Source: Octopus vulgaris
Taxonomy: Eukaryota
Assembly (NCBI GenBank): GCA_951406725.2
Contig: OX597816.1
Coordinates: 154,442,001 to 154,506,000, forward strand
Reading direction: 5' to 3'
Length of the DNA stretch: 64,000 bases
The translations under genes were made by a program, and so were the position numbers. Shown piece after piece: positions 7,831-56,439 of the stretch. Each line of letters starts with the position of its first letter. Position 1 is the stretch's first letter. Below the pieces are notes generated by a model, which worked only from the letters and a program-made list of their open reading frames with translations, searched no databases and was not told the origin of the DNA.

Positions 7831-8510
7831 TATTTACATTCAACGGATATTTGTCCTCATCTTGTTTGTTGTTAACACATTTCAGCTGATGTACCCTCCA
7901 GCCTTCATCAGGTGTCTTGGGGAAATTTTGAACCTGGGTTCTCATTCCTAAGGTATTTTTCAATGTTATCATTCTTCATATTATTCAAGTCACTGCTTGG
8001 AATCAAACTCGGAATCTTGGTGTTAGTAGCCTGTGCTCTTAACCGTGGGCAATTATGGAGTGAATTTTAGGGCTTATAAATTTAATATTTTTTTCTATCC
8101 TTCCTTAATACTGGTTCCCATATGCTGCTCATATCTGCTCTCAGTCTGCTTAGGAGGTTGTTGTGTCCTAGCATATGTGCTGCTTCTTTTAGTTTTCATA
8201 TTTTCCATTAATGTTCTCTATCTATTATTTTAACTTCGTTCCACAGGTGGTCTCCAGTTTTCCATACATGATCAGCTATACCTGATTTATCAATATCTCC
8301 TGGTGTTTTAGCTTTGAGATGTTCATCTACCCTATTTTGAGGGGCAGCATGTTTCGCCTTTGTATAACCTGCCACAGCTGCATGGGATGGAATACATGCA
8401 GTCTTTGGTCATATTCTCTTCTATTGGTGGTTTTACTCAAAGGAGATATTTGCAAAGTGTTGTATTACTCTTGAATACTGTCCTGATGTCATATGGGCTG
8501 CATATCTTTT
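7831..8510 (-). mobile_element. Penelope (Poseidon-like) 3' fragment: GIY-YIG, tRNA-like segment and HHR-bearing pLTR
   Basis: Minus translation DCMYSIPCSCGRLYKGETC...SGIADHVWKTGDH...LKEAAHM; its 3' UTR is an inverted copy of 8790-9090. Confidence 0.88.
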
Positions 8511-8529
8511 GTATACAGTGTAAAGAGAG

Positions 8530-9126
8530 GGATAGCTCAGTACCTAAAACCTCATGCAAGGAATATAAGTTGTGATCATGATACACACCACAAAGAAATG
8601 ATCAAGCTCAATAATGATCTGTTAAGCAACAACTACCCCATAAGTATACTATCCACTCCAATTATGAAGAAGAGAGAGGATGAGGCCAATAAACTGTCCA
8701 CAGTCTGTCTACCCTATGCGAATGGCCTCTCCGAAAAGATACAAAAGATATGTGACCCATATGACATCAGGACAGTATTCAAGAGTAATATGGGAATCGT
8801 AATTAGGTAAGGATAGAAAAATATTAGATTTATAAGCCCTAAAATTCACTCCATTATTGCTCATGGGCAATAGGCATAGTGGTTAAGAGTGTGAGCTACT
8901 AACCCCAAGATTCTGAGTTCGATTCCAAGTAGTGACCTGAATAAGAATAATAACATCGAAAAATACCTTAGGAATGAGAACCCAGTTTTGAAATTTCCCC
9001 AAGACAGCTGATGAAGGCTGGAGGGTATATCAGCTGAAACGTTGTGTTAACGATAAACAAGATGAGGACAAATATCTGTCAAATGTAAATAATGTACATA
9101 ATTCCTCATCTCTTAAATATAGAACT
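8530..9126 (+). mobile_element. Second, inverted Penelope fragment with the GIY-YIG domain deleted
   Basis: ORF ...LLSNNYPISIL...VCLPYANGLSEKIQKICDPYDIRTVFKSN jumps at about 8790 directly to the ORF end and 3' UTR. Confidence 0.88.
9001..9048 (+). ncRNA. Minimal type-I hammerhead ribozyme in the PLE pLTR
   Basis: gacag-CTGATGA(9008-9014)-A-GGCTG-loop-CAGCT-GAAAC-GTT-gtgtt with palindromic stem III AACGTT; homologues at 7874-7917(-) and about 55947-55994(-). Confidence 0.8.
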
Positions 9127-9327
9127 GTACTACTATGTATATTTTTGTCCTCCCACACTTTACAGATTGACAAAAAGGCTAAGGCAAATGTTATTAAAAA
9201 ATATTTTAATAGCATTAACATGAAAGGATGCAATGTGTTTCATTTACTTTTGAAAATATGTTCCAAATCATAACTGCTAATCATGATAAGCTGTTGTTTA
9301 ATATCCATGTTTCATACTGGCATACAC

Positions 9328-42469: not shown

Positions 42470-44060
42470 GTTTTCAATTACTCCAATGAACTTCCACATT
42501 GCATCAAAAAAAAAATTGTAATAGAAAGGCTAAAATTCATCTTGGAGAATAACTTCTTCGTCTTCAAAGACAACTTCTATCAACAAAAATCAGGGACTGC
42601 AATGGGTACGAGAATGGCTCCCATCTTTTTTGCTAACCTAGTCACGGGATATCTAGAAATCAGTCTTTATTGTAAGGTACTAGAAAAATATGGCAACACA
42701 TTCTCCCTCTACATAGAAAATAACTGGAAGAGGTATCTGGATGACTGCTTCATTCTTTGGCATGACAGTACAGAGAAACTTAAAGAATTTCAAATACTTA
42801 GAAATGGACTTTACATAAACATTCAATTTACCCTAACAACTTGCATTCCTTGACATTCTTAAGAAATCCAACAATAAAATAGAAACAGATATATACTCTA
42901 AGCCTACAGACTCCAAGCAGTATCTACTGTTCAACTCATGCCATCCCAGACACACTAGAATGAATATCCCCTTCAACCTGGCAAAAAGGATTTGTACTAT
43001 AGTTTCTAATACAAACACCAGGGACACACCACTTCATGAACTAAAGGATACACTCATCAGCAGGAATTACCCACCATCACTAATTGATATAGGCTTTCAA
43101 CGTGCCCTACAACTCAACATCCACAAACTCAGCCATCCCAAACTAAAGAAGGATTTATGGGTAAAAGCCCTACCATACATCTCCACACACAACCCACTTA
43201 ACAATGGAGCTTTTGACACCATCCTCCAGAAAATTTCCCTACTAAAAAGGGATCACAATGAATTTAATTCTCCAAATGCACACCATCACAACGAGCAAAA
43301 GACAACCCAAGTCTATGAAAAATCTCCTAACACAAGCTCAAGTACACTTTGCAACAATACTGAAGCTGTCAGTAAAAGAATGTGGAAGGGCTAACTGTGG
43401 TATATACATCAATCTAATTGAGGGATCAGAATTCCCTTTCAAACAGGGCCAATGTTTTACAGTAAAAAAGAACTTCATATGTGCTTTGCAAAACCTAATA
43501 TGCGTATTAACTTGCTCAGGGTGTCAAGAGCAGTACATAGGCCAAACCAGAAAATGTCTACGCCAAAGGATGACCCTACATAGATCCCAGATTAAAATTT
43601 GGGAATACAGAAAAAAAGCGTTCAGCGAACACATTGACATTTGCACCACTAACGAACAACCCAACTTTGGAATTTTTCCCCTCTATAAATTCAGGGATGA
43701 CGCAACCTATAATAGGCGCATTAGCAAAGAGTCATAGTTTATCGCAAAATATAAACCTCTTTTGAATGCTTCCACCACAAATGACACTACTACAAAGGCC
43801 TTAGAATAATATCCATGCAAATATTTAAAATATATTCAGAACAGTCATTACCCATAAATTTATTCAGAACAATTCCAATCATTACTACTATAGCCACAAC
43901 AGGTCACTTTTAAGTTACTTGACCATTTAAGAGGACTCCACCAATACTATTTAGCTTTCCATCAACTTTAACTAGAGGGCCAACACCAAAGGTACTAAAT
44001 ACCACCCACACCATCACTCCCCCCCCTGCTTGCGCCTTAAATTTATTTTCGCCAGTGTAT
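42470..44060 (+). mobile_element. Penelope-like element (Neptune-like): RT and GIY-YIG, frameshifted
   Basis: YQQKSGTAMGTRMAP..ANL, WKRYLDDCF, NIPFNLAKRICTI, CGRANCGI, NLICVLTCSGCQEQYIGQT..LRQRMTLH. Confidence 0.95.
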
Positions 44061-55891: not shown

Positions 55892-56127
55892 CATTATTTA
55901 CATTATTTACATTTGATGGGTATTTGTCCTCATCTTCTTTGTTGTTAACACAACGTTTTGGCTGATATGCTCTCCAGCCTTCATCAGGTATCTTGGGGTA
56001 ATTTCGAATTTGGATTCTCATTCCTAAGGTATTTTTCGATGTTATTATTATTCAGGTCACTGCCTGGAATCGAACTCAGAATCTTGGGGTTAGTATCCCG
56101 CACTCTTAACCACTACGCCATATGCCC
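55892..56127 (-). mobile_element. Solo tRNA-head plus HHR element (SINE-like derivative of the PLE 3' end)
   Basis: Starts GGGCATATGGCGTAGTGG (A-box), has GAGTTCGATTCC (B-box), then the same pLTR and HHR as 8870-9095, and ends in (TGTAAATAA)2. Confidence 0.88.
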
Positions 56128-56439
56128 ACATATATGTACATACACACACACACATACATATATCACCATCATCTTTATCATCATCATCATTTAACGTCCG
56201 CCTTCCAGGCTGGCATGGTGATATGTGTATATATGTATATATAATGTGTGTGTGTATGTATATGCTGTTGTGGGATGGACAAATAAAACATGATTTCATT
56301 CCTTTATGTGGAGTTTGGGTGTGGCTTGGAATGGATTGCTCTATTTTTTATGTATTTCAATTACTCATGTAATGAACAACTTTGTTGATGAACAGGACTA
56401 CAAGACTCTGGAATAGATGTCCATATATAGAAATCCCAT

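Follow-up and report, generated by a model that had tools for sequence, protein, structure and literature searches.

The 236-bp repeat at positions 55892-56127 (minus strand) of the window, the whole 64,000-nt stretch of octopus DNA analysed here, is a solo copy of the 5′ module, or pseudo-LTR, of an autonomous, tRNA-headed Penelope-like element (PLE) of Poseidon type, and the numerous SINE-like solo copies of the same module are probably by-products of that element. The earlier note on this DNA had instead proposed a separate non-coding hybrid of a SINE and a retrozyme; this was not borne out, since the whole module, head included, forms the pseudo-LTR and the ORF start of the autonomous element, solo and ORF-linked copies have their haplotypes in common, and neither end of the copies lies at the ribozyme cut.

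Structure of the Focal Copy

On the minus strand, the copy runs from a tRNA-like head (56053-56127) through an (AAT)n tract (56042-56052), the length of which is highly variable between copies, and a minimal type I hammerhead placed within a coding frame (55947-55992) to an in-frame 9-nt repeat (55892-55913) at the first of two 3′ end points, a putative reverse-transcription (RT) start site; the optional tail found in other copies is lacking. In the following, positions are counted from the first base of the head (+1), with a mapping reference of 271 nt. As the earlier note had it, the copy begins at the tRNA-like head, in which the motifs of an A box (56110-56120) and a B box (56065-56075) can be read off the minus strand. 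The top matches of the head among 58 tRNAs recovered from the genome are tRNA-Arg(TCG) and tRNA-Arg(TCT), an isotype that is tentative given the incompleteness of this set, which has 11 anticodon labels. ARAGORN and Rfam called neither a tRNA nor a hammerhead at the focal copy, ARAGORN with a low threshold returned noise, the folding of the whole element was not more stable than that of shuffles (z -0.34), and no target-site duplication is visible at the focal copy. Directly beside the head, positions 56130-56218 hold a microsatellite and the end of another abundant repeat, related pieces of which occur many times in the window.

The statement that the copy contains no PLE coding sequence proved wrong. 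Its last 129 bases (55893-56021, minus strand) are an open frame with codons 1-43 of the PLE ORF, which starts from the ATG at 56019-56021, is still open where the copy ends, and aligns to the N-terminus of an intact 847-aa PLE homolog, P0003 (E 1e-5); the longer copy L232 aligns to the same N-terminus at 47% over 102 aa. The motif coded by the hammerhead sits at the start of three fetched proteins of more than 700 aa, and a homolog with an intact ORF translates the coding region of the module likewise. L232 and L242 have an ATG at about +116, from which an open frame leads through the hammerhead and the "tail" into the ORF; L216, L232, and L242 all join the module to the ORF start without a gap or a shift of frame, and in near-full-length copies the 43-codon frame extends into the RT-endonuclease ORF. 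The terminal repeat (TGTAAATAA)2 recognized at the outset is real, although it is no SINE tail: it codes for Asn-Val-Asn in the ORF frame and lies at one of the two 3′ end points.

The Autonomous Penelope Element

The near-full-length copy L216 (about 2.6 kb) contains, in this order, an inverted module, a truncated module in frame with the ORF, the RT, a C-terminal endonuclease region, a spacer, and a full module; a pseudo-LTR, with the same module before and after the ORF, is present in L216/L523 and L545. A search with the ORF fragment 8050-8500 gave 40 matches, 30 of which were examined, and in 28 of these 30 ORF-picked loci the ORF stop is followed, at one fixed junction, by a spacer of about 30 nt and the same head; because the head follows the ORF stop there and precedes the ORF start at other loci, it belongs to the pseudo-LTR of the autonomous element. 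A Pfam RVT_1 match confirms the RT domain of the ORF; the C-terminal endonuclease, for which Pfam gives no match of its own, can be aligned with PLE-like homologs, some of them annotated PF01541, over 95-99% of the query. To judge from its sequence, the element is a PLE of the Penelope/Poseidon clade, with a single ORF that codes for the RT followed by a C-terminal GIY-YIG endonuclease, the clade being assigned from domain order and similarity rather than from a tree. At E <= 1e-20 the protein of the element is matched by 353 proteins, including an unnamed 836-aa Anolis protein that is 36% identical to that of L216, and the best 30 PLE-like loci found with a 41%-identical homolog as query all belong to this one family; no relatives appeared in the first metagenome scan or in the viral scan.

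The same family is found again in the window as a head-to-head insertion (7831-9129) with ORF fragments in both arms. One arm (7831-8514, minus strand) consists of the ORF 3′ end with the endonuclease region, the spacer, and a module without the first 16 bases of the head, and the other (8515-9129, plus strand, left edge approximate) of a partly deleted ORF 3′ end, module, and tail. A weak tblastn match (35-41%) to PLE reverse transcriptase at 42518-42968 is a fragment of a different, older element.

Copy Number and Samples

In the genome searched (G000, 2.8 Gb, 227 contigs), an 18-mer from the 9-nt-repeat/3′ part, at +200, has 13,227 exact matches, versus 0 for its reversed control, and other exact 18-mers along the element have 6,097 (+32), 1,114 (about -40), and 97 (about +290). 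Divided by the match rate of 32/69 in copies picked on another motif, the highest count corresponds to approximately 29,000 pieces genome-wide, or about 20-30 thousand. A blind sample of 40 x 10 kb contained only two loci and was too small, so the first exact-motif matches along contig C1 were used: a tail-anchored set of 98 distinct copies from the first 100 matches of the 3′ motif, and a head-anchored set of 94 distinct anchors from the first 94 of the 6,097 matches of the head motif, in which a few segmental duplicates remain. Of the 5′ ends classed at "+76", those of at least two copies (L159-, L206-) should be placed further upstream. Only 10 of the 94 head-anchored copies reach the ORF, heads being about tenfold commoner than ORF 3′ ends. 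Words of the module also occur in runs X1-X20 under five organism labels, and because of this the family appears to predate several species.

5′ Ends of the Copies

Among the 94 head anchors, 10 extend beyond -30 to the ORF side, 44 end at -7..-1, and two end at exactly +1. Considering the 64 copies at risk, those that reach the start of the head, the 44 ends at -7..-1 compare with 3.7 expected from the drop-off rate measured at +8..+32 (P 2e-39). The mapping of 5′ ends suggested in the earlier note thus gave the sharp pile-up at the head, rather than an even spread, that was to support a SINE, with the peak at -7..-1 and not at the tRNA +1 anticipated. The leader bases match the own spacer of the element in 87, 68, 66, and 53% of the copies at -1, -2, -3, and -4, respectively, and in 16% at -8 (38 junctions). 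A peak in this position indicates that the RNA has a discrete start shortly before the A/B-box promoter. A template whose 5′ end lies a few bases ahead of the A box agrees with type 2 initiation by Pol III and a short leader, and disagrees with a cut at +1.

The peak might also be produced without any effect of a promoter, if the copies were 5′-truncated read-through products and the RT stopped or folded back at the palindrome over the start of the head. We regard this as improbable. Such a palindrome does exist (perfect over 12 nt, -7..+5), 16 junctions, ambiguous in position, lie within it, reads show strand-switch joints there, and heavy 5′ truncation with inversion is the known layout of PLE copies according to the available text of PMC8557442; in the present samples, an inverted partner accompanies 64 of the 94 head-anchored and 59 of the 98 tail-anchored copies. 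Nevertheless, the peak persists when only non-inverted copies are taken (10/19 end at -7..-1, P 2e-8), it is also seen in inverted copies whose partner joins elsewhere, and stronger hairpins downstream, such as hammerhead stem II and the tRNA arms, stop far fewer copies. As a point against the by-product reading, seventeen of the 94 heads (L342, L346, L356, L367, L388, and others) have no PLE part downstream, most of them stopping in the AAT tract, which may possibly be due to priming at this tract or to later interruption.

3′ Ends and Putative Initiation of Reverse Transcription

The 3′ ends of the 98 tail-anchored copies fall into two main groups, 48 at or before +245 and 37 at +265..+275, with six between and seven beyond, and these two end points, 30-40 nt apart, define the optional tail; reads mapped on L080 have loose ends at the same two places. 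A LINE-type 3′ tail is absent, the 3′ ends of the copies being internal positions of the ORF. The proposed mobilisation by Penelope machinery is supported by these two end points, together with the frequency of inverted partners in the head-anchored set. In PAc, the Poseidon element of Anolis carolinensis, the ORF starts in the hammerhead, reverse transcription starts inside the RNA, 111-118 nt into the ORF, a tail of 30-40 nt lies between two start sites, the presence of the initial 172 nt of the ORF is required, cleavage prefers 5′-ATT-3′, and cutting by the ribozyme is dispensable, as described in the accessible part of PMC11167929. By analogy, the two 3′ end points of the octopus copies may be regarded as start sites of reverse transcription, and the family would offer a genomic read-out of an internal-initiation mechanism known in vitro for PAc.

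The sequence of events that we propose is as follows. Transcription, likely by Pol III, would begin shortly before the head (at about -7..-1), and the PLE protein would bind the ORF-start region and prime at an AT-rich nick. Initiation at the internal site in the first module, about 240-270 nt into the RNA, would then generate solo copies like the focal one, and initiation at the second module of tandem transcripts the roughly tenfold rarer ORF-bearing copies. If the enzyme needs the ORF downstream of the start sites, a binding requirement taken over from the lizard PAc, each solo would be a dead end, with head-plus-ORF loci as the source of the templates; cutting by the ribozyme, also by analogy with PAc, would not be needed for insertion.

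Copies that hold the ORF start are informative as to the template. Of 51 such copies, drawn from the 97 matches, 28 have a short ORF piece followed directly by another module, 20 just end, two run off the locus, and one is full-length. In the 28 (within L552-L601), the ORF piece extends 51-1042 nt past the second end point, with a median of about 115 nt, the pattern predicted for templates continuing into the ORF, with jumps of the enzyme to the 3′ ends of these templates; this suggests head-plus-ORF loci, rather than solos, as templates, and the joints fit either a template jump or a circular template. No full-length copy starting at the head was found among them, the longest head-started one (L575) reaching 859 nt past the second end point.

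Nine or ten of the 98 tail-anchored copies are joined to the (AAT)n tails of other repeats, and since such joints occur, it is plausible that the promoter was captured in the same manner, an ancestral copy having joined the (AAT)n tail of a tRNA-derived short repeat. The joints fit a preference for ATT targets or joining by microhomology. The 5′-truncated copies concerned sit on the tails of three other repeats (L134, L173, L204; L167, L170, L171, L181; L144, L179, L200), one of which, presumably, is the end of an R4/NeSL-type LINE. Three other heads joined at the AAT tract were examined as possible sister SINEs, an idea that was discarded, since two of them occur without the module in the blind sample (0/3 and 0/2) and the third is absent there.

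The Hammerhead

The hammerhead of the family is composed of CUGAUGA, one additional A, stem II of 5 bp, GAAA, helix III with the palindrome ACGU, and stem I of 5 bp, and shows the features given for the minimal hammerheads of PLEs in the portion of PMC4209133 consulted, namely, the core CUGANGA, a single additional base ahead of stem II, closure by a G-C pair, and a helix III that is palindromic. The G12A change reported in the earlier note as CpG-type decay is confirmed: the position concerned, 55959, lies within a CpG, and G12A is present in 13% of 208 copies; the ribozyme of the focal copy is probably dead. The predicted cut, after 55952 in the focal copy, does not coincide with the ends of the copies. 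Tail-anchored copies end at least 43 nt downstream of it, ends at the cut being undetectable in this sample, and only two or three of 98 have a 5′ end near it, so that the hammerhead appears to set neither end.

A Separate SINE or a By-Product

Two linked haplotypes over module positions +64, +78, +154, and +223 differ by A versus U at hammerhead position 7, and both are present in solo and in ORF-linked copies. The variable sites +64, +154, and +223 are polymorphic in both groups alike, and the 15 unbiased ORF-linked copies carry solo haplotypes, including the main one. No variant private to solos was detected in 110 solo versus 45 ORF-linked copies, a comparison of low power in which only 15 of the 45 were unbiased. 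Three positions differ in frequency between solos and similarity-picked ORF copies, mainly on account of the 30 similarity-picked copies, and the apparent differences at +32..+45 are an artefact of the anchor.

These data bear on the possibility that the solos are a true SINE, with some solo loci transcribed by Pol III, copied in trans by the Penelope enzyme, and forming lineages of their own, which we consider unlikely, without its being negligible. The tenfold excess of heads over ORF 3′ ends, the sharpness of the 5′ peak, the intact A and B boxes in a module without T4, and the flanking duplications of 8-12 nt in 4 of 18 non-inverted copies would all agree with a SINE. They are countered by the haplotypes just described, with no solo-private variant and with the main solo haplotype in unbiased ORF-linked copies as well, and by the leader bases, which derive from the 3′ spacer of the ORF. 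Moreover, the tandem joints hold ORF-start sequence, as did one of the six same-strand pairs listed among unbiased loci, no spacer appeared as a transduced flank in the unbiased same-strand pairs, and PAc requires ORF RNA beyond the start sites, following the available text of PMC11167929. We prefer the by-product reading, which offers a way for SINE-like families and retrozymes to arise from the 5′ ends of PLEs; in this genome, copies in the tens of thousands that an annotation would likely class as SINEs would be PLE ends.

Which Polymerase Transcribes the Element

The RNA that starts at the head is probably made by Pol III, as far as its sequence can tell. Extending this to the whole element, it is conceivable, as a tentative proposal that we would not yet favour, that an autonomous coding PLE captured a tRNA-derived type 2 promoter, that Pol III makes the full-length RNA of about 2.9 kb, that the ORF was purged of T4 runs, and that the 5′-proximal RT site mass-produces SINE-like copies; if true, a coding retrotransposon could in this way give rise to a SINE directly, with no second element involved. 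The sense strand of the 2.6 kb of L216 contains no T4 run versus 3.7-5.5 expected (P 0.0005-0.012 in four shuffles), with a normal number of T3 runs (20 versus 19.9), and the majority sequence of the copies has none either (P 0.04 with a synonymous shuffle and 0.12 with a dinucleotide model), the 38 T4 runs in 97 kb of copies being scattered, with at most four copies per site. In 90 control PLE loci from metagenome and genome collections, 774 T4 runs were counted versus 720 expected, none of the 76 loci with at least three expected runs is free of them, and T4 is not depleted in four LINE families of the same genome. Against this, G4 is likewise absent from the majority sequence, and L524, the only copy with a 569-aa open frame, has three T4 runs; the absence of T4 as a sign of Pol III on the whole element is a modest signal, suggestive only. 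An uncapped Pol III RNA would also be poorly translated. RNA-seq of one organism with the family showed no start or end peak at the head, the depth being equal on both first-mate strands and 63-68% of the reads running into unlike sequence.

A real RNA end at the head could, on the other hand, result from Pol II initiation or from processing at the tRNA-like fold, the tRNA sequence then being a passenger or a processing signal. The protein indeed requires a translatable mRNA, and one dissected Penelope promoter, that of Drosophila, is described as LINE-like, resembling TATA-less internal LINE promoters, in the available part of PMC2377424. We hold this explanation to be highly improbable: an RNase P-type cut predicts ends at +1, where only 2 of the 94 lie, most copies keeping 1-7 leader bases, which disfavours such a cut; within the head, divergence is lowest in the B box (20/624 versus 198/3066 mismatches); and the ORF is without T4 runs. 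Searched with a tRNA profile, none of the 90 control PLE loci has a tRNA-like head beside the ORF end, a result that does not imply uniqueness, since many of these loci are truncated. In two of them (L436:2013-2080 and L465:2114-2160), truncated PLE ORFs are preceded, at a distance of a few hundred bases, by tRNA-like sequences with T runs after them, which are probably unrelated SINEs.

Relationship to Known Elements

A coding Penelope element with a tRNA promoter opening its terminal repeat would blur the line between coding retrotransposons and SINEs. Ohshima and Okada reportedly described, in 1994, the octopus tRNA-derived SINEs OR1, OR2, and OK, with tRNA-Arg-derived families among them, and the focal repeat, we presume, may be one of these. 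No report of a tRNA-headed autonomous PLE was found in the open-access literature searched; an entry for the family may exist in Repbase or Dfam. The available main text of a 2026 repeat annotation of the octopus is silent on hammerheads.

Coding retrotransposons are taken to be transcribed by Pol II, with SINEs as separate passengers, in the available text of PMC10886601. The closest system is PAc, with which the octopus element shares an ORF of RT then GIY-YIG that starts at the hammerhead, AT-rich targets, and internal initiation of reverse transcription at two sites, slightly more than 100 nt into the ORF, with a tail of 30-40 nt between them; it differs in its tRNA-derived head, none being described for PAc in the accessible part of PMC11167929, in the start of the ORF about 35 nt before the hammerhead core, and in the approximately tenfold excess of short head-started copies over ORF copies. 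The captured promoter has a parallel in the TRIMp3 elements Cassandra, Helenus, and Ajax, in which a Pol III promoter derived from a small RNA was taken into the terminal repeat of a retroelement; these are, however, all non-autonomous LTR elements, whose autonomous partners must use Pol II according to the author (PMC10886601, available text), whereas in the octopus it is the coding element whose terminal repeat carries the head.

With regard to the hammerhead, the solo and inverted hammerheads of metazoan PLEs are likewise minimal type I, stem II being preceded by an extra base and helix III being palindromic, and are mostly single or in opposite-strand pairs 100-700 bp apart, being ascribed to truncated PLEs in the available portions of PMC4209133 and PMC8557442. 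In contrast to such copies, read as random truncations, most octopus copies that reach the head stop within seven bases of the tRNA-like start. The combination of a tRNA-derived sequence and a hammerhead at high copy number, presented in the earlier note as unusual, had already been described for the SINE-like repeats Sm-alpha and Sj-alpha of schistosomes, apparently transcribed by Pol III (PMC6765202, PMC2770079, PMC4918200, available text). To go by these descriptions, the schistosome repeats are tandem non-coding units cut by a canonical ribozyme, for which no autonomous partner is shown, and are set apart from the octopus module, which is the start of a coding element and whose ends lie off the ribozyme cut. 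Finally, animal non-LTR retrozymes and non-autonomous PLE derivatives are also short hammerhead sequences akin to PLE pseudo-LTRs and moved by PLE enzymes (bioRxiv 10.64898/2026.07.22.740005 and PMC8557442, in the parts available); the non-LTR retrozymes are tandem monomers with an active ribozyme in each, and no tRNA is mentioned in the accessible part of bioRxiv 10.64898/2026.07.22.740005, whereas the octopus copies are mostly single or head-to-head, with ends not set by hammerhead cleavage. Tandem units, rare in the octopus family, consist of a truncated module and about 120 nt of ORF (L227/L233 at G000:C29:8137355-8137816, L222, L224, L234, L247), with a 276-bp period at one locus, and are retrozyme-like derivatives.
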